A stretch of DNA of 43,273 nt. Origin: Candidatus Moraniibacteriota bacterium (GTDB lineage Bacteria > Patescibacteriota > Minisyncoccia > Moranbacterales > UBA9337). A program made the translations under genes and the position numbers. Location: NCBI GenBank assembly GCA_026985555.1, contig JALSQF010000003.1:128605-171877 (forward strand), in the 5' to 3' direction. The notes under the pieces were generated by a model, which saw only the letters and a program-made list of their open reading frames with translations, was not told the DNA's origin and searched no databases. Positions 2,770-30,030 of this stretch are shown piece by piece; positions within the stretch are counted from its first letter, which is position 1; the number at the start of each line of letters is the position of its first letter.

Positions 2770-3918
2770 ATGTTAAAAAAAATATTTTTAGCGTTAGTAA
2801 TTTTAATTGGTATAAGCGCAATCTCTTTTAATGTTGAAGCTGGAAGCAATGATAATGTTAGAGGTTGGTTATGGGCCGGAAGTGATACTAATTTTGGTTG
2901 GATAAGTACTAATAATATTACTGGTGGAGGAAATGTTAATTATGGACTTAATATTCCTGCTAATGATGGTAATGTGACAGGATATGCTTGGAGCGAAAAT
3001 TTAGGATGGATTAATTTTGAGCCTGAAGGTCCTTATCCAGCTGCTCCTAATTATAGCGTTAAAAGAGTAGGTAATAAACTGGAAGGTTGGGCTAGAATAG
3101 TGAGTATTCAAACTGCTAGTTCAATAGGTAATTCTGGCGGTTGGTTGGGTTGGATTAAAATGAGTGGGACAGTTCAAGTTGGAGGTTATTATGGAGTTAC
3201 GATTACCCCTAGTAGTGGTCAGCTAAAGGGTTATGCTTGGTCTGATGAATTAGGTTGGATTGACTTTAGTAGAGCCCAAACTAATCCGACAGTAACACAT
3301 CATTTAAATATTTGTAATATTTGTAGTAGCGGTAATCCTTTGCCAGCATTAACTATGAATATAAATGATACTAGAAATTTAAGAGCTTGTTTAGCTGATA
3401 GTGCTAGTAGTTGTTCGGGAACAGATGTAACTGCTAGTGCTAGCTGGAATGATACAAATAGTCCTCAGGATGCCGTTAGTATTCCTTCTAAAGGAACTGT
3501 TCAAGCTAATAAGGCTGGTAGTGAAAATGTAAATGTTTCATATAATGATAATGGGAATTCTCTAAGTAATAGTTTGCTAGTTAATGTATCAGATAATAGA
3601 AATTTAGTTGTTTGTGAAAATTCTTGTACAGGAGGAACATTAGTAAATACTCTTCAAATGAAAAAAGGAAATACTCAAAATTTAAAAGCTTGTTTAGTTA
3701 CTAACTCTAATAGTTGTTCGGGAATAGATGTAACTACTAGTGCTAGCTGGAATGACACAAATAATCCTCAGGATGCCGTTACTATTCCTTTTAAAGGAAC
3801 TGTTCAAGCTAATAAGGCTGGTAGTGAAAATGTAAATGTTTCATATAATGGTAAAAATACTTCTTTTACAGTTAATGTAACAGGAGGAGTAGATGACTGG
3901 AGAGAGGTAACTCCTTAA
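2770..3918 (+). CDS. Secreted surface protein: G[WY]AWS..GWI repeats plus two Cys-containing Big_2-like Ig repeats; ends DDWREVTP
   Basis: Signal peptide ending VEA; GYAWSENLGWI and GYAWSDELGWI; DVT.SASW..GTVQANKAGSENVNVSYN twice. Confidence 0.8.
   Translation: MLKKIFLALVILIGISAISFNVEAGSNDNVRGWLWAGSDTNFGWISTNNITGGGNVNYGLNIPANDGNVTGYAWSENLGWINFEPEGPYPAAPNYSVKRVGNKLEGWARIVSIQTASSIGNSGGWLGWIKMSGTVQVGGYYGVTITPSSGQLKGYAWSDELGWIDFSRAQTNPTVTHHLNICNICSSGNPLPALTMNINDTRNLRACLADSASSCSGTDVTASASWNDTNSPQDAVSIPSKGTVQANKAGSENVNVSYNDNGNSLSNSLLVNVSDNRNLVVCENSCTGGTLVNTLQMKKGNTQNLKACLVTNSNSCSGIDVTTSASWNDTNNPQDAVTIPFKGTVQANKAGSENVNVSYNGKNTSFTVNVTGGVDDWREVTP
3408..3850 (+). repeat. Intragenic direct repeat, ~140 bp near-identical at 303-bp offset (3408-3547 / 3711-3850)
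   Basis: Direct comparison; both run TAGTTGTTCGGGA...GTTTCATATAATG. Confidence 0.9.
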
Positions 3919-3962: not shown

Positions 3963-4541
3963 ATGAAATTTTTAAAAAATAACATAATGACCAATAGAAA
4001 GGTTTTAGGTGTAACTATTGTAATTGTATTAATATTTATTTTGGGTTTAATAATCTTTTTAGGTTTTTTTAAGAAGGAATCTTACGAATATTATTTGTCT
4101 AAAATGAATTTAAATAGATTTAAATTTAAAAATTATAATAAAAAGATTCATAAAGAGGTTGATTTTAACAATACACCTCTTTCTGATAAAGAAAAAGAAG
4201 AAATACGCGTTCTTTTGGAAAAAGAAAAAAATAATTCAAGAAATTCAGATTTAACATCGGATCAAGAAAATGAAAATTTCAAAAAAATTGATTCAATTTT
4301 AAAGAAGAGCTTGGTTAGTAACAGACCTCTTTCTGATAAAGAAAAAGAAGAAATACGCGTTCTTTTGGAAAAAGAAAAAAATAATTCAAGAAATTCAGAT
4401 TTAACATCGGATCAAGAAAATGAAAATTTCAAAAAAATTGATTCAATTTTAAAGAAGAGCTTGGTTAGTAACAGACCTCTTTCTGATAAAGAAAAAGAAG
4501 AAATATGCGCTCTTTTGGAAGAAATTCAAAGAAACCGATAA
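3963..4541 (+). CDS. N-terminally membrane-anchored protein with 50-aa tandem repeat
   Basis: Single TM (VLGVTIVIVLIFILGLIIFLGFF); PLSDKEKEEI occurs three times. Confidence 0.75.
   Translation: MKFLKNNIMTNRKVLGVTIVIVLIFILGLIIFLGFFKKESYEYYLSKMNLNRFKFKNYNKKIHKEVDFNNTPLSDKEKEEIRVLLEKEKNNSRNSDLTSDQENENFKKIDSILKKSLVSNRPLSDKEKEEIRVLLEKEKNNSRNSDLTSDQENENFKKIDSILKKSLVSNRPLSDKEKEEICALLEEIQRNR
4175..4520 (+). repeat. 150-bp tandem repeat, 2 identical units plus a partial third
   Basis: ACCTCTTTCTGATAAAG recurs at 4175, 4325 and 4475. Confidence 0.93.
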
Positions 4542-4617: not shown

Positions 4618-5496
4618 ATGAAAAAAGAAATGAAAACCAATCATTGGTTAGGGATAATTATTACGGGAATTATGTTAGGTGCTTCTATCCAATTTGCAAT
4701 GGCTTGGACAGAACCTTCCTCAAAGCCTCCCAAGGGTAATTTGGCTGCACCACTCAATGTGGGGAATAAATTTCAAGAAAAAGCAGGAGGATTGTTTATC
4801 AATAGAGATAATGTATCTGGATTTGGGTTGATGAATAGAAATTATTTAATTAATTATGGTAGTATTATTGCTATGCATGGGGGAAATGTTATTGCGTCAA
4901 AAGATGTACGTGCCTCTGGTGATGTAATAGCTGATGATCAGGTGTATGCAGGAAGCGGTAAGTATAATCTAATATTAGGAACAGTAAATTCTGTTAGTGA
5001 TTATAGAAAAGTAGATAATATAGGTGGTCCTTGGATTTATGCTTTTAATTCTTCTCCTGACGCACATTCTTTAAATGGATCTATAGGAATTAGAGTTCGT
5101 CCTTTAGGTAGCCAGGCTGGATTGGTAGTAGGAAAAGGTAAGGGAAGATGGGCTGATGTATGGGCAAGGACGTTTCATTATACTTCTGATAAAAGATTAA
5201 AAAAAGACATTAAGACAATTAATAATGCTTTAGAAAAAATAACTAAAATTAGAGGAGTAGAATATAAAATGAAAGATGGTAATGTTCCAGGAATGGGGGT
5301 AATTGCTCAAGAAATTGAAAGTCAATTTCCCGCTTTAGTGAGCACTGGTCCTAGTGGCTATAAAACCGTTGAATATAATGGTTTTATAGGTGTTTTTATA
5401 GAAGCTTTTAAAGAGCAGCAAAAGCAAATAAAAGAACAACAAAAAGAAATTGATGAACTTAAACAAGCTCTTCAAGAGCTAAAAAATAGACAGTAG
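4618..5496 (+). CDS. Secreted fibre-like protein with C-terminal peptidase S74 intramolecular chaperone domain
   Basis: Signal peptide ending AMA then WTEP..PP.GN.AAPLNVG; TSDKRLKKDI..I.NALEKI..IRGVEY, GVIAQEIE..FP.LV; terminal coiled coil. Confidence 0.85.
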   Translation: MKKEMKTNHWLGIIITGIMLGASIQFAMAWTEPSSKPPKGNLAAPLNVGNKFQEKAGGLFINRDNVSGFGLMNRNYLINYGSIIAMHGGNVIASKDVRASGDVIADDQVYAGSGKYNLILGTVNSVSDYRKVDNIGGPWIYAFNSSPDAHSLNGSIGIRVRPLGSQAGLVVGKGKGRWADVWARTFHYTSDKRLKKDIKTINNALEKITKIRGVEYKMKDGNVPGMGVIAQEIESQFPALVSTGPSGYKTVEYNGFIGVFIEAFKEQQKQIKEQQKEIDELKQALQELKNRQ

Positions 5497-12473: not shown

Positions 12474-12890
12474 ATGATTAAAAAAATAACATCAAAAGGA
12501 AGTGTTTTAGTTTTTTCTTTAATTATTATGTTTCTTATTCTTTCGGTAGTTTTAGGAATTACTAAAGTAGTAGTTACTCAACAACAAACCTCTTCTGTTA
12601 CTAGTAAATCAACTCAAGCTATTCAGATAGCCAATAGTGGATTAGAGAAAGTATTAAATAAGAAAAAAGATACTACTAATACTCAAATACAAGACTTAGC
12701 TGATAAACCTAATGATTGTGAAAATGGAATTATATCTTATAGTTTATTAGGAGGACAAGTGACTATATCTTTTTTTAATAATAATAATTCTATTAATAAT
12801 TGTTCTGGTTCTGTTAGTAATATTAAAAAAATAAAGTCAGTGGGTGAAATTAATGGAATCAAGCGCGCTATACAAGTTACTGTTGAATAA
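12474..12890 (+). CDS. PilX-like type IV minor pilin/pseudopilin
   Basis: Class III signal KG|SVLVFSLII with no Glu at +5; S.QA.QIA.SG.E motif; C-terminal IKSVG...IKRAIQV. Confidence 0.75.
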   Translation: MIKKITSKGSVLVFSLIIMFLILSVVLGITKVVVTQQQTSSVTSKSTQAIQIANSGLEKVLNKKKDTTNTQIQDLADKPNDCENGIISYSLLGGQVTISFFNNNNSINNCSGSVSNIKKIKSVGEINGIKRAIQVTVE

Positions 12891-15214: not shown

Positions 15215-16699
15215 ATGTGGAGCTTGATTAAAAAAAATAAAAAAAATAAAAAAGAAAGTAGCAGTAAATCGCGTTTATCTAAAGAGGATTATCAAGACTT
15301 GTTATCCCGTGTGCATACGATGCAAGATGATATAAATAGTGTTGTTAGAAAAAAAACGAGTAAGATATATTATAGTGAAAATGGACAAAAGGATAAAAAC
15401 AAAGAATATGATAAAAAACAGGATTTGCCCATTACAGAATCAAATAGTCCTTTTCTAAATGATGTTGAAAATGACGAAACTACCTTTGATAATTTGGATA
15501 AAAAAATAAAGCAAGTAGAAGAAAATAGAAAAGGGCAGAAGAAAACAGAAAATCAATCTCAAGATCAATCTCAGCTTGATATAAAAAATAACACGAAAGA
15601 ACAAATAGAAGAAAAGACTGAAAATACTTATTTGGATAAGTCTAATAAATATTTTGAAAATGAAGAAATAACAGATGATAAAAATTTTACTCAATTGAGT
15701 GAAAAGGACGAATATAATCAAAAAAAATCAGAAAGAGATAAGCAACAAGAAAATAACAATTTATCTTTTGAAAATCCTTATGCTGATATGTGGAAAAAAG
15801 ATGATAATTTACAAAAATCAGCGATTAATCAAGGAGTTACACAAGAAACTAAAAATGAAATTTCTGAATCTAAAAAAAATAATTATTTCTCTTCTCAAGA
15901 TAAGAATAAAATTAAAAAGTCATTTTCTGATATTGCTCCCGCTCCCGAACCAAAAAATCAAAAGAGTTATTCTTTAAAAACAGGCATTGTAGTAGCTATG
16001 CTTGGCATTATTTTAGTAACCTTAGGTTGGGGAGGATATTATTATTGGAAAAAAAATTATTCTTTGCCAGATTATATAAAAGACTATGATACGAAAGCAG
16101 ACAAAAAACAAATAGAAAATAAAAAAGAATTAGAATATTCTTTAACGGGTCCTAATTATTTTTTATTGGATACAGAAACAACTAATAAGGAAAGCATACG
16201 ACAAGAATTAATAAAAATAAGTCAAAAAATAAATCAAACTGATTATAATAATAAATTAGTTAAGTTTATTGTTACAGATAAAAACAATAATCCCTTAGCA
16301 TTTTCTCGCTTCGCTTATTTATTTAAGCTTAATTTAAACAACAATCTAACCAATCTTTTAGATGAAAAATTTTATTTTTGTTTCTTTAATGATAATGGCA
16401 AGGTTCACTCTGGTTTAATAATTAAAATTAAGAAAGATCAAAAGAATAATTTAAATTCAATGTTATTCAAAGATCAAAACAATTTAGTAAAACAGCTTTC
16501 CCCATTATTTTTAAACAAAAAAATAGATTTTAATAAAAAATATGTTTTTAAAGAAAGTTCTTACAAAGATCTAAAAATTCATTATGTTAATATAGATAAT
16601 CAAGATGGTTCATCCATAGACTATACCTTTACTGATAAATATTTTCTTTTAGGCACGAGTAAAAATACATTAAGAAGTATTATAGATAACTTAGAATAA
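15215..16699 (+). CDS. Single-pass membrane protein with long low-complexity N-terminus and globular C-terminus
   Basis: VHTMQDD near N-terminus, K/E/N/Q-rich linker, TM GIVVAMLGIILVTLGWGGYYYW. Confidence 0.75.
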   Translation: MWSLIKKNKKNKKESSSKSRLSKEDYQDLLSRVHTMQDDINSVVRKKTSKIYYSENGQKDKNKEYDKKQDLPITESNSPFLNDVENDETTFDNLDKKIKQVEENRKGQKKTENQSQDQSQLDIKNNTKEQIEEKTENTYLDKSNKYFENEEITDDKNFTQLSEKDEYNQKKSERDKQQENNNLSFENPYADMWKKDDNLQKSAINQGVTQETKNEISESKKNNYFSSQDKNKIKKSFSDIAPAPEPKNQKSYSLKTGIVVAMLGIILVTLGWGGYYYWKKNYSLPDYIKDYDTKADKKQIENKKELEYSLTGPNYFLLDTETTNKESIRQELIKISQKINQTDYNNKLVKFIVTDKNNNPLAFSRFAYLFKLNLNNNLTNLLDEKFYFCFFNDNGKVHSGLIIKIKKDQKNNLNSMLFKDQNNLVKQLSPLFLNKKIDFNKKYVFKESSYKDLKIHYVNIDNQDGSSIDYTFTDKYFLLGTSKNTLRSIIDNLE

Positions 16700-17570: not shown

Positions 17571-19592
17571 ATGATCAATAAAAAAAGAATATTAATTTTT
17601 GACTTTTGGAAACTGTTAGCTTTATTGTTAATAATTTATACATATTTTGGAGGTGTACAATTAAAAGCTGAAGCCAGGGTTTATTTTACGGAGGGTTCGA
17701 TATCTCCTCAGTGTGGTTCTTGTGATCATCCTAATTATGATTATTTTAAAGAAGTTCATTTTGATTCTCCGTTTCAAGGGCAAATTTTTTATCCTGGTAG
17801 TCCTATACACATCAAAGGTTATATAAAAACAAATGAAAAAGCATCTTATCGTTGCAAAGTAGGGGGTAAGTGGACTTGGGGTAAAGTAACTGGTGCTTTA
17901 TTTAATATGATTTTAGGAAAAGATATAAATGGTGTTAGTAATAATGTTTCCTGTACTACCATATGGGCAACTAAGTGTACCTCTGGTTCTTATCCTCATA
18001 TAGGTATTATAAAAAGAAATGATTATGTTTTAAATTCAGGAGGAGGTAATATTCAACATGTCGGTAACGAAGAATCACATAAAAGTTCCAATGGTCGTAT
18101 ATATTTTGATAAAACTTTTACTATTCCTGTAGATTGGGCTAATAATGATAATAATTCAGAAAAAACAGATTATTTACGAATTTATCCCGTATTTTCAACT
18201 TGTAACAGTCAAGATATTGGAGTAAATATAGGTAGTTTTTATTTACCAATCAATATTAGGCCTAACAAAATTAACGGACAATGTGCTATAGGACATTATT
18301 ATTGTTTAAAAGGAAACTCTATCAATCATCATTACAATTCTTCTTCTAGTACTTATACTTGGCAATGTCAAGGAGTTAATGGAGGAACTACAGCTAGATG
18401 TGTTCAGAGATTAGCTATTAATGGTCGATGCGCCCTTATACATAATCAATGTAATAGGGGTGCTTCACGAGATATTCCTGATACATCAACCCAATGGAGA
18501 TGGCAATGTGTAGGAACAAATGGAGGTTCTAATATTACTTGTTCCGAAGATAAACCAACTTTATCTTTCACTGCTAATCCTAATCCAGTTAATTATAATA
18601 CAGCTTCTAATCTAAGATGGACAACTAGTCATGTGCAAAGTTGTTATGCTTCAGGAGCTTGGCGTGGTTGGAAAAGTAACACCGGAGGAAGCCAATCTAC
18701 AGGTCCTTTAACTTCTAGTAAAACATATTCTTTAGAATGTTGGAATTCTCAAGGAAATAGCACGGGAAGAAAAACGGTTACGGTTAATGTTAATAGAGTC
18801 AATGGTCAATGTGCTTCTAGACATAATCAATGTAATAGGGGTGCTTCTCAAGATATTCCTGATACATCAACTCAATGGAAATGGCAATGTTTAGGAACAA
18901 ATGGAGGTTCTAATATTACTTGTTCCGAAGATAAACCAACTTTATTTTTCACTGCTAATCCTAGTTCAGTTGATTATGGTAAAACTTCTAATTTAAGCTG
19001 GACGACTAGTCATGTGCAAAGTTGTTATGCTTCAGGAGATTGGCGTGGTTGGAAAAGTAACACCGGAGGAAGCCAATCTACAGATTCTTTAACTTCTAGT
19101 AAAACATATTCTTTAGAATGTTGGAATTCTCAAGGAGATAGCACGGGAAGAAAAACGGTTACGGTTAATGTTAATGCAGTCAATGGTGAGTGTAATAATG
19201 AGGATGCAAAAACTTATGATTGTCATGCTACAAGTTTTACCAAAGGAATATTTTGTAATAAAGGAACTCCAAACCCAACTAAACCAATCTTTCCTAATAA
19301 AGGAACTTCTACTACTTGGCAATGCTTAGGATTAAATGGAGGTAATAATGATACTTGTACAGCTTCTGTGCAAGCAATAACTAGTGGTAAATGTGGTTCA
19401 GCTAACGGACAAAGTTTTTATACTAGACCAACTTCAAATTTGTGTAATAATGGTACGCCTTCCACTTTAAATTATAATAGTAACACTTCTAAATGGACAT
19501 GGACATGTTCTGGCAATTGCAAAACTTCCGTTAACTGTTCAGCTAACAAAAAAGAACAAAAAACTGAAGACTGGACAGAAGTAGCCCCTTAA
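17571..19592 (+). CDS. Secreted Cys-rich repeat protein (adhesin-like); ends EDWTEVAP
   Basis: Signal peptide ending AEA; repeated NGxC...W.WQC.G.NGG...C modules alternating with P.L.FTANP..V.Y...S.L.W.....SC Ig-like modules. Confidence 0.8.
   Translation: MINKKRILIFDFWKLLALLLIIYTYFGGVQLKAEARVYFTEGSISPQCGSCDHPNYDYFKEVHFDSPFQGQIFYPGSPIHIKGYIKTNEKASYRCKVGGKWTWGKVTGALFNMILGKDINGVSNNVSCTTIWATKCTSGSYPHIGIIKRNDYVLNSGGGNIQHVGNEESHKSSNGRIYFDKTFTIPVDWANNDNNSEKTDYLRIYPVFSTCNSQDIGVNIGSFYLPINIRPNKINGQCAIGHYYCLKGNSINHHYNSSSSTYTWQCQGVNGGTTARCVQRLAINGRCALIHNQCNRGASRDIPDTSTQWRWQCVGTNGGSNITCSEDKPTLSFTANPNPVNYNTASNLRWTTSHVQSCYASGAWRGWKSNTGGSQSTGPLTSSKTYSLECWNSQGNSTGRKTVTVNVNRVNGQCASRHNQCNRGASQDIPDTSTQWKWQCLGTNGGSNITCSEDKPTLFFTANPSSVDYGKTSNLSWTTSHVQSCYASGDWRGWKSNTGGSQSTDSLTSSKTYSLECWNSQGDSTGRKTVTVNVNAVNGECNNEDAKTYDCHATSFTKGIFCNKGTPNPTKPIFPNKGTSTTWQCLGLNGGNNDTCTASVQAITSGKCGSANGQSFYTRPTSNLCNNGTPSTLNYNSNTSKWTWTCSGNCKTSVNCSANKKEQKTEDWTEVAP
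18420..19181 (+). repeat. Intragenic tandem duplication, 2 x 381 bp (127 aa)
   Basis: AATGGT recurs at 18420, 18801 and 19182 with near-identical units between. Confidence 0.92.
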
Positions 19593-19610
19593 AAAACTTT
19601 AAATTTAAGC

Positions 19611-19646
19611 AAAAAACCTGATTTAATTAAAAAATCAGGTTTTTTT
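19611..19646 (+). terminator. Rho-independent terminator
   Basis: AAAAAACCTGATTT, loop, AAATCAGGTTTTTT. Confidence 0.85.
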
Positions 19647-19723
19647 ATTTAAAATAAAATTTTCTATTTTTATTTTTCAATCAACTTAATTAGATTGATG
19701 AAAATAAGAATTTAATTTTATAT

Positions 19724-20066
19724 TTCTGGCTATTTAAATATCCATTTAAATGGATATTTAAATAGCCAGAAGGAAAAATAGGTTTTGAAAAATTTAAAAA
19801 TATTTTTGAATTTAAACTTGTTGGTTAAAAAATATATAAAATATTTAGAAAATAGAATTAGAAAAAACTATAAATTGAAAAAATCATTAAAGAAAGTTAG
19901 TTATATATCACTTACAATTTATAAAACCTTTAACTTAATTGAATTCAAAAAATTAGTTTAATAATTAAATAAAAACAACAAAAACATTAAAAAACTTTAA
20001 TTAAAAATGAAAAAACAATTAAAAGGTAGCTCTGTTTTTAAAAAATTTGAAAGGGTTTTAGATGAA
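19724..20066. repeat. Dispersed intergenic element copy B: full 48-bp palindrome (19724-19771) plus AT-rich tail
   Basis: TTCTGGCTATTTAAATATCCATTT|AAATGGATATTTAAATAGCCAGAA; tail matches 5577-5751 with ~124 bp extra (19911-20034). Confidence 0.92.
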
Positions 20067-29481: not shown

Positions 29482-30030
29482 ATGTTAAAAAATAGAATAA
29501 AAATAATTTTATTGCCTCTATTGTTAGTTGGTTTTCTAGGATTTAATTTTCAAGGAATTTCTCAGGCTGCGAATTATAATTATCATCCGATGGAAAAAAT
29601 TCCAGGCACAGAAGATATTTCTACTTTTCCTAAATATATAGAAGCTATTTTTCGTTTTGCTGTGTGGACTATTGGCATAGCGGCTTTGTTAATGTTAACT
29701 ATAGGAGGCTATATGTATATAACAGCAGCGGGAAATACTAGCACAATAGAAAAAGCTAAAGATATTATTCGGGATGCTATTCTAGGAGTTTTAGCTGTTA
29801 TTTTGGCTTATTTGCTTTTGTTTGTGATTAATCCAGATTTAGTTAATATTGATTTAGGCAGTTTAAGCAGTAGTAATTTAAATTCTTCTAACAACTCTAA
29901 CAACTCTAACAACTCTAATAACTCTAATAACGCTAATAATTCTTCTAATTCTAATAATAACCAAAATAATAATACTAACAATTCTCAATATAATTACTCA
30001 GAAGAAGAGAATTCGTTACCAGGTCCTTAA
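29482..30030 (+). CDS. CPR-type TrbC/VirB2-like pilin-family membrane protein with Asn/Ser-rich tail
   Basis: Signal peptide; helical hairpin with GGYMYITAAGN...IEKAK..I..AILG; INPDL. Confidence 0.75.
   Translation: MLKNRIKIILLPLLLVGFLGFNFQGISQAANYNYHPMEKIPGTEDISTFPKYIEAIFRFAVWTIGIAALLMLTIGGYMYITAAGNTSTIEKAKDIIRDAILGVLAVILAYLLLFVINPDLVNIDLGSLSSSNLNSSNNSNNSNNSNNSNNANNSSNSNNNQNNNTNNSQYNYSEEENSLPGP
29887..29940 (+). repeat. 9-bp coding tandem repeat, 6 units (TCTAAYAAC, Ser-Asn-Asn)
   Basis: TCTAACAAC x3, TCTAATAAC x2, GCTAATAAT. Confidence 0.9.

Follow-up and report, generated by a model that had tools for sequence, protein, structure and literature searches.

A short C-terminal tail on secreted proteins of a Patescibacterium as a candidate plug for type IV pili

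In a 43,273-nucleotide stretch of the genome of a Candidatus Moraniibacteriota bacterium (hereafter the window; G000:C3:128605-171877, where G000 is our label for the source genome), two genes encode otherwise dissimilar secreted proteins, P0001 and P0002, that share the ending W-x-E-V-x-P directly before the stop codon. Judged from sequence, W-[KR]-E-[VI]-x-P is a conserved and portable end piece carried by signal-peptide proteins of differing bodies in the order to which the window belongs. Because the tail agrees with the plug by which tip adhesins of other bacteria are anchored on type IV pili, these six residues probably mark proteins that are displayed on the pili of this cell. The explanation that we favor, and consider likely, is that a plug of the PilC/PilY1 type is carried here by diverse secreted proteins other than PilY1 and docks on a minimal PilX/PilK-like minor pilin. 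We infer the binding itself, the location at the pilus tip, and any role as an adhesin or in host recognition.

A conserved tail at the ends of secreted proteins

The original prediction had pointed to a DW-x-EV-x-P ending, followed by the stop codon, as common to two secreted proteins of the window. Translation bore this out: P0001 ends in ...GGVDDWREVTP and P0002 in ...KTEDWTEVAP, each directly before the stop. The two genes and their tails are as follows.

2770-3918, plus strand: P0001, 382 residues, with a signal peptide, a GW-repeat domain, two immunoglobulin-like (Ig-like) domains and a free 11-residue tail (translation, AlphaFold2 model).
3892-3918, plus strand: C-terminal tail DDWREVTP of P0001 with its stop codon (D375-P382 plus stop, exact); candidate plug, that is, donor beta-strand.
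17571-19592, plus strand: P0002, 673 residues; a signal peptide precedes a body of Cys-rich repeats (32 Cys) that matches no Pfam family, and the chain closes with the tail seen in P0001 (translation, Pfam scan).
19566-19592, plus strand: C-terminal tail EDWTEVAP of P0002 with its stop codon (DNA pattern match at G000:C3:148176-148196).

We assessed chance occurrence in the source genome (740,893 bases in 11 contigs, 27.8% G+C) using 1292 six-frame open reading frames (ORFs) of at least 50 residues and a set of 743 non-overlapping gene-like ORFs. P0001 and P0002 were the only members of the larger set that end in W.E[VILM].P, and for the 743 gene-like ORFs, which include both, composition predicts 0.0027 such ends (Poisson P(≥2) = 3.7e-6). 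Anywhere within these 743 ORFs the motif was seen four times against 0.81 expected, and two of the four occurrences are C-termini. Loosening the ending to W.E[VILMTA].{0,3} added a single protein of the genome, a cytoplasmic PolA-like one.

Among the 41 genomes of the window's order that served for the order-level comparison, the DNA pattern TGGNNNGARGTNNNNCCNTAR, which encodes W-x-E-V-x-P plus a stop codon, gave 41 matches in 25 genomes, and its backwards control gave 3. The pattern closes an ORF of at least 100 residues in 27 of the 30 loci retrieved; the remaining three are cut by a contig or locus end. From 20 larger loci of relatives, together with the window, we assembled 21 tail proteins, 19 of them full-length (314-1452 residues). 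All 19 have a signal-like hydrophobic N-terminus, compared with 221 of 621 genes in the genome background, so the association with signal peptides that the original prediction proposed as a check was found; signal peptides were judged by a hydropathy heuristic rather than by a dedicated predictor. A pilin-type N-terminus was found in none of the 21.

The tail is retained in the wider family of P0001 as well. This family comprises 556 homologues at E≤0.001, which have the N-terminal domain and the tail in common and vary in the middle. In the 119 homologues examined for their tails, 52 end in W.E[VI].P, 21 carry the motif followed by one to three residues, 33 have relaxed variants (for example YKEVAP, WIETNP, REIPPR and KEIIPFF) and 13 have none. 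Counted from the tryptophan, the 73 motif-bearing homologues have K (34) or R (28) at +1, V (69) or I (4) at +3, and P at +5 in every case; A or S is favored at +4 and N at -1. The 61-sequence alignment of P0001 (alignment A1) shows E379 invariant and P382 conserved in at least 90%. The stretch that precedes the tail differs in length and composition, and the six tail residues are kept.

The bodies that carry the tail

Both proteins were originally predicted to carry Sec signal peptides and no membrane anchor, and to differ in their bodies, and all of this agrees with our results. After residue 45, the highest 19-residue Kyte-Doolittle mean is 0.69 in P0001 and 0.57 in P0002, leaving a single hydrophobic segment, at the N-terminus, in each. 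The signal peptide of P0001 spans about 24 residues and ends in ...VEA at the predicted cleavage site; it is followed by a GW-repeat beta domain (residues ~27-174), two Ig-like domains (~175-371) and the tail (372-382). P0002 consists of Cys-rich repeats to which no Pfam family could be assigned, and its 32 Cys compare with 8 in P0001. An NCBIfam scan of the two proteins returned nothing relevant.

The AlphaFold2 model of P0001, built on alignment A1, has a mean predicted local distance difference test score (pLDDT) of 90.6. Its last strand covers residues 362-371, and residues 372-382 have no secondary structure and a pLDDT of ~69-70. Since the tail is unstructured in this monomer model, it does not appear to be folded into the protein's own last domain, an outcome that the original prediction had named as one that would speak against docking. 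The Ig-like part resembles LigA (8gyr; Foldseek E 2.2e-10, VIA-align Z 12.7), and other structural likenesses of this part are to SbsC, Sap and phage Ig domains. The GW-repeat domain (window 2851-3291, residues 27-174; motifs GWxW and GYAWSENLGWINF) matches no Pfam family. Its model resembles small eight-stranded barrels, at middling scores: hemophilin 7re4 with Z 7.3 and a root-mean-square deviation (rmsd) of 3.2 over 104 residues, the HpuA barrel 5ee2 with Z 7.0, and PagL 2erv with Z 7.0. In the source genome P0001 is the sole match to a hidden Markov model (HMM) of the GW domain.

Among the tail proteins, the GW domain is confined to seven short orthologues and P0001 itself. Nine of the ten long tail proteins scanned lack any Pfam family, and the last 50-70 residues of those without a GW domain are usually Cys-rich. 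P0001 is a member of the conserved family among the tail proteins, and P0002 is one of the variable ones. Closure of the tail onto the N-terminal GW domain of the same protein, a "Velcro" arrangement, was set aside because most tail proteins have no GW domain and because the tail is unstructured in the monomer model; for P0001 itself it was set aside less firmly.

The shared ending might be a remnant of common ancestry, or a cap that stabilizes the last domain, with no docking involved. Such a reading could draw on the Cys-rich C-terminal regions and the Ig- or PKD-like modules that many tail proteins share, and on the single-linkage BLAST cluster into which 20 of the 21 fall. It is nevertheless very improbable in our view, given that the sequence before the tail varies while its six residues stay the same, that the tail of P0001 is free in the monomer model, and that the motif keeps to the extreme C-terminus (two of its four occurrences in the source genome).

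Several other observations concern P0002 and its surroundings. A terminator-like hairpin with 35-nucleotide arms, 80% complementary, directly follows its stop codon (window 19590-19778 region), and a near-perfect palindrome at 19717-19778 (31-nucleotide arms, 90%) lies inside a 627-base AT-rich spacer and has no Rfam match. Upstream, an ORF at 15215-16699 on the plus strand encodes 494 residues of no known family, with one hydrophobic segment near residue 250 and a first half that is rich in Lys, Asn and Glu and of low complexity. Homologues of P0002 (P0141, P0146-P0149), themselves secreted repeat proteins, end in ...PDFREF, ...PKFNEF, ...PVFKEF, ...DLREI or ...INEEI; such ends may be another lineage-specific C-terminal end motif.

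The published plug and the same ending on long PilX-like pilins

The original prediction had stated that PilY1/PilC adhesins end in a W-R-E/Q-type strand thought to dock on minor pilins, and three 2026 papers bear this out (PMC13711793; PMC13533445; bioRxiv 10.64898/2026.09.18.752573). PilC/PilY1 tip adhesins carry a C-terminal PilY1 beta-propeller (PF05567 / IPR008707; bioRxiv 10.64898/2026.09.18.752573). Within the last ~10 residues of PilC/PilY proteins a W is conserved; R and E often come next, and after them hydrophobic residues (PMC13711793). This tail inserts into the minor-pilin complex beside the PilX/PilK sheet by beta-strand augmentation (PMC13711793; PMC13533445). Kingella PilC2, whose last residue is number 1502, depends on W1498 and I1501 for its function (PMC13711793). 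For PilC of Neisseria meningitidis, a 12-residue plug proved both necessary and sufficient for piliation and bound PilK in purified form; cargo without the PilY1 propeller is raised there only as an engineering prospect (bioRxiv 10.64898/2026.09.18.752573). The sheet of PilK is completed by a donated strand, which is supplied in cis in GspK, ComGG and CpaL of the type II secretion (T2SS), Com and Tad systems, and in PilK homologues large insertions may separate the donor strand from the acceptor sheet (PMC13533445). Our literature search found no paper that ties Patescibacteria to a C-terminal plug or sorting motif.

Outside the order, the class-level comparison covered 301 genomes of the class. 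A relaxed form of the DNA pattern gave 48 matches there and its backwards control about 44 by hand count, that is, no overall enrichment, and individual places were therefore retrieved to part true ends from noise. We retrieved 39 of the 48; the first 20 were picked by eye for recurring sequences and form a biased batch, and a second batch completed the set. The places left out comprise eight with an in-frame stop inside the match and one at a contig start. Of the 39, 8 are C-termini of PilX-like pilins and 7 are those of secreted proteins; 3 are unclear, 2 are truncated by contig ends and 19 are spurious short ORFs. The seven secreted proteins are of the PKD, Ig or TSP1 type and end in ...P.W[KR]E[VI].P.

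The eight pilins are long (404-623 residues). Their N-termini (...GQAALIAVILML...) match the PilX-like pilin HMM with E 2e-12 to 7e-9, and one of them scores 22.6 bits against PilX_N, under the cut-off of 25.5. In each, a pilin module is followed by a domain of 300-500 residues and by the ending ...SSGPSGGWxIxxW[GAKQR]E[VI][VIL]P. L094:2807-4018 is an example of such a long pilin. With one long pilin as query, a full-library search returned 1360 representatives of this family at E≤0.001. Among the best 150 of these 1360, 116 end in W.E[VILMTA].{0,3} (in 101 of these a single residue follows the hydrophobic position), and 120 match the PilX-like HMM. None of the 41 genomes of the window's order yielded the long family, and five of five positive controls did; across the class, 82 of 151 genomes yielded it, none of the six same-order entries among them. 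On the simplest reading of these sequences, donor strand and acceptor sheet would be joined in one protein in most of the class and divided between separate proteins in the window's order. The terminal W-x-E-[VI]-x in cis on long pilins of sister families, and the failure to find this long family in the window's order, argue for the class of receptor named in the original prediction, a PilX-like pilin.

These pilins also bear on a different possibility, namely that the tail is a general signal for surface retention or sorting, unrelated to pili, and is bound non-covalently by the cell wall or S-layer or joined to the envelope by a hypothetical transpeptidase. In its favor, all tail proteins have signal peptides and lack membrane anchors, and with no sortase found in the genome another retention device would be needed. 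The window encodes an LCP enzyme, and P0001 orthologues have a YkuD L,D-transpeptidase gene nearby at three loci. We judge this possibility unlikely all the same. In known C-terminal sorting signals (LPXTG, PEP-CTERM and others) a transmembrane helix and a basic tail come after the motif, whereas the proteins studied here end one to four residues past the motif. Moreover, a retention signal fails to account for the motif at the end of PilX-like pilins, which are already anchored in the membrane or filament, and it leaves the match to the PilC/PilY plug unexplained. Sortase-type anchoring in particular was rejected: sortase (PF04203) was not found in the source genome, in which exosortase and rhombosortase were not searched for, and no transmembrane segment follows the motif.

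A candidate acceptor pilin

For docking of the tail as a plug, the window itself offers a candidate receptor.

12474-12890, plus strand: minimal PilX/PilK-like minor pilin, 138 residues, proposed acceptor of the tail (sub-cut-off profile matches, AlphaFold2 fold).

Its N-terminus (...SKG/SVLVFSLIIM...) leads into a long helix, and a four-stranded sheet closes the C-terminus (...KRAIQVTVE). The profile matches are all under their cut-offs, with 21.7 and 23.6 bits against PilX_N (PF14341; cut-off 25.5) and 22.7 bits against NCBIfam ComGG_2 (cut-off 40). In the AlphaFold2 model (pLDDT 86.6) the helix spans residues 11-65 and the strands residues 86-91, 94-101, 119-126 and 129-136. The best VIA-align match of this model, at a middling Z, is the Thermus competence pilin 6qvf_A (Z 8.6, rmsd 2.2 over 75 residues); the next are the pseudopilins EpsI, GspI and XcpV and the pilins PilA5, Streptococcus sanguinis PilA and ComZ, six further pilins or pseudopilins among the top nine. 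Foldseek gave no match in the PDB at E≤0.001, and a word-index search with the PilX-like pilin returned three proteins only, all unnamed. With its long N-terminal helix lying against a small antiparallel sheet, the modeled product has the fold of a type IV pilin.

The source genome encodes exactly two PilX-like pilins, both without the tail, and exactly two secreted proteins with it. The second pilin, a paralogue at C3:5517-6194 outside the window, has 225 residues, is 52% identical over the pilin module and carries an extra Cys-rich C-terminal domain of ~85 residues. Short PilX-like pilins have homologues in 38 of the 41 genomes of the order, and many of them are minimal (146-169 residues). 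Some others have fused C-terminal domains (293-488 residues; loci L063, L064, L067, L069, L073, L080, L087 and L090); some of these contain repeats of sialidase/BNR-like appearance by eye, none of the proteins ends in the W-x-E tail, and several end in Cys. No BLAST match at E≤1e-3 joined the fused extensions to tail-protein bodies. Nothing clear emerged from a comparison of the tail with the last PilX-like strand for co-variation; in one genus, a single clade, tails ending in V-[RK]-P occur with pilins that read RSVEA.

The type IV pilus cluster of the genome is on contig C7 and contains PilM/N/O-like proteins, PilB, PilT, PilC, PilD and two pilins, together with three minor pilins (C7:44904-45395, 45430-46035 and 46028-46576); it includes no PilX-like gene. 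The gene at 12474-12890 lies between those for PNPase and LigA and is not beside PilI/PilJ-type minor pilins, the other three being on C7. The PilY1 domain PF05567 has no match in the source genome at E≤1, and none in the Pfam scans of P0001 and P0002.

Prediction of the complex

We modeled residues 28-138 of the pilin (alignment A2) together with the last Ig-like domain and tail of P0001, residues 285-382 (alignment A1). The prediction gave weak support for a complex, with a score of 0.46 (0.46, 0.41 and 0.47 in the individual runs) compared with 0.00 for the best of three controls. At least 83% of contacts are shared between the runs, and the partner pLDDT is at least 73. Of 80 solved complexes 58 pass the mark, as do 2 of 110 mismatched pairs, but only 7 of the 80, along with both of these mismatches, pass it at 0.60 or below; these counts hold only roughly here because our own alignments were used. 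The pass may partly reflect likeness to solved pilin-strand complexes. Modeling of the terminal peptide with the PilX-like pilin was a check suggested in the original prediction; its outcome here, for the tail with the last Ig-like domain, is a weak pass with no reported interface, which modestly raises the odds of docking but proves nothing.

Gene neighborhood

The window holds mostly housekeeping genes, among them those for FtsH, MetAP, GroES, S6, SSB, EF-P, an LCP enzyme, PNPase, LigA and a LysM-CHAP hydrolase, and named homologues of its proteins carry the labels Candidatus Moranbacteria or Patescibacteria. Rfam and tRNA scans of the whole window gave no match. Two genes follow that of P0001.

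3963-4541, plus strand: small single-pass membrane protein with acidic tandem repeats; syntenic neighbor of P0001 orthologues (synteny).
4618-5496, plus strand: fiber-like protein with a C-terminal Peptidase_S74 chaperone domain and the mature N-terminus AWTEPSSKPPKGN (Pfam PF13884, 55 bits).

The product of 3963-4541 has 192 residues with three near-identical acidic repeats of ~48 residues, and the syntenic ORFs of relatives have the same layout without sequence similarity. The S74 (endosialidase chaperone) fiber proteins at these loci have a conserved mature N-terminus, A-W-T-E-P-x-x-x-P-P-x-G-N, and are often tandem paralogues (window, L037-L039, L048, L051, L052). Elsewhere in the window, an ORF at 29482-30030 on the plus strand encodes 182 residues with a signal peptide and an Asn/Ser-rich tail of low complexity; it is a borderline match to T4SS_pilin PF18895 (26.8 bits, cut-off 26.6).

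Clustering of 298 ORFs from the 20 loci and the window identified as neighbors the housekeeping genes for ArgRS, GT4, IleRS and UvrA, plus the S74 fiber module. As a route to the partner of the tail, the gene neighborhood was abandoned, as it offered only these and no pilus genes. In four genomes (G000, G032, G008 and G033) a tail gene lies within ~17 kilobases (kb) of a PilX-like gene; because they are too few and too closely related, we do not count this proximity as evidence.

The tail might instead dock elsewhere: on the S74 fiber protein, on the GW barrel of P0001 in head-to-tail chains, or on another minor or major pilin. The genes for the small membrane protein and the S74 fiber follow P0001 orthologues in 7 of 7 loci, the mature N-terminus of the fiber, AWTEP..., is vaguely W-x-E-like, and the complex with the PilX-like pilin reached only the weak pass described above. 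This synteny is, however, limited to the GW family, the remaining tail proteins, including P0002, having different neighbors. The fiber and GW proteins also lack the acceptor features that the literature assigns to PilK/PilX, and the in-cis family ties the motif to PilX-like pilins specifically. A partner of this kind seems to us decidedly unlikely.

Discussion

In the mechanism that we propose, Sec export of P0001 and P0002 would leave the C-terminal peptide free, and this peptide would become an additional strand of the small beta-sheet in a minimal PilX/PilK-like pilin, for which the product of 12474-12890 and its paralogue at C3:5517-6194 are the candidates. Once inserted, the strand would stabilize the acceptor pilin and hold the cargo protein at the tip complex of the type IV pilus. 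A single long PilX-like pilin would provide both acceptor sheet and donor strand, in cis, in most other families of the class, whereas the window's order would rely on donation in trans by separate non-pilin secreted proteins with diverse bodies. More tentatively, and with slightly less than even confidence, we suggest that an ancestral long PilK-like pilin was replaced in this order by a minimal acceptor and unrelated secreted proteins, each bearing a six-residue donor strand, in which case the tail would be a modular tag by which any Sec-exported domain could be mounted on the tip and exchanged through gene gain and loss.

Several points weigh against docking on the PilX-like pilin. The strict DNA pattern is absent from 16 of the 41 genomes of the order, whereas a PilX-like gene is present in 38; among the 16, at least G001 has a variant tail, NWIETN. 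A PilX-like gene lies within ~8 kb of a tail gene in only 2 of 21 loci, the window and L042, and the neighbors of P0001 orthologues are housekeeping genes and the S74 fiber gene, with no pilus genes. The score of the predicted complex falls in the weak zone and no interface was reported, so that the contact is not assignable to the tail rather than to the Ig-like domain. One genome, G136, carries both an in-cis long pilin and an in-trans tail protein, and the two forms are thus not strictly exclusive. The tail in the window is shorter than the 12-residue Neisseria plug and ends in x-P. Finally, if these cells have a single membrane, a soluble secreted protein could diffuse off before it is captured.

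Pilus-tip proteins are largely uncharacterized across uncultured Patescibacteria, and for cultivated members type IV pili are the one surface structure with a demonstrated part in host contact (PMC12206443). The mechanism considered here is already known; its use with cargo other than PilY1 would be new. Were W-[KR]-E-[VI]-x-P a plug, candidate tip proteins could be picked out of metagenomes by means of a simple C-terminal pattern, and if the tag is indeed modular, the tail would be a way to list the host-contact proteins of uncultured episymbionts from sequence alone. If the tail is a plug, the addition of a beta-strand to PilK-type pilins, described in 2026 for Proteobacteria and Myxococcus, would extend to cargo without a PilY1 propeller, and the fused and split forms in neighboring lineages would provide a natural experiment on the evolution of the tip complex.

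Comparison with known systems

Among the closest known systems is the PilC/PilY1 plug of type IVa pili in Neisseria, Kingella, Pseudomonas, Acinetobacter and Myxococcus. In both cases the carriers are Sec-exported non-pilin proteins whose ends combine a W, a charged pair (often R-E) and a hydrophobic residue at +3, with the chain ending one or two residues later; for PilC/PilY this consensus follows the wording of the authors. W1498 and I1501 of Kingella PilC2 have the same spacing, W and +3 near the end, as the tails in the window (PMC13711793). PilC/PilY1 proteins often occur as several paralogues per genome, and their peptide adds a strand to the PilK/PilX sheet. In contrast, the window proteins have no PF05567 propeller, and their bodies are a GW barrel with Ig-like domains or Cys-rich repeats; their genes lie outside the minor-pilin operon, their host is a Patescibacterium, and docking is so far predicted only.

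Compared with PilK-type pilins that donate the strand in cis (GspK/XcpX, ComGG, CpaL/TadG, and the Thermus and Vibrio PilK homologues with large insertions), the long pilins of the sister families share the layout given in PMC13533445, and their strand insertion is putative. The PilX-like pilins of the window's own genome differ in having no such W-x-E end.

In Saccharibacteria, which are likewise Patescibacteria, the PilX-like pilins PilX1 and PilX2 carry host-binding domains (PMC12206443; bioRxiv 10.64898/2026.10.06.756255), and some PilX-like homologues in the window's order also have fused domains (293-488 residues). There the adhesin is fused to the pilin, whereas the cargo proposed here is separate and would be joined through its tail.

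With C-terminal sorting signals (LPXTG with sortase, PEP-CTERM with exosortase), the tail has in common that secreted surface proteins carry it as a brief, conserved motif close to their C-terminus. It differs from them in that the window proteins end at the motif, with no transmembrane helix or basic tail, and in that no sortase was found in the source genome.

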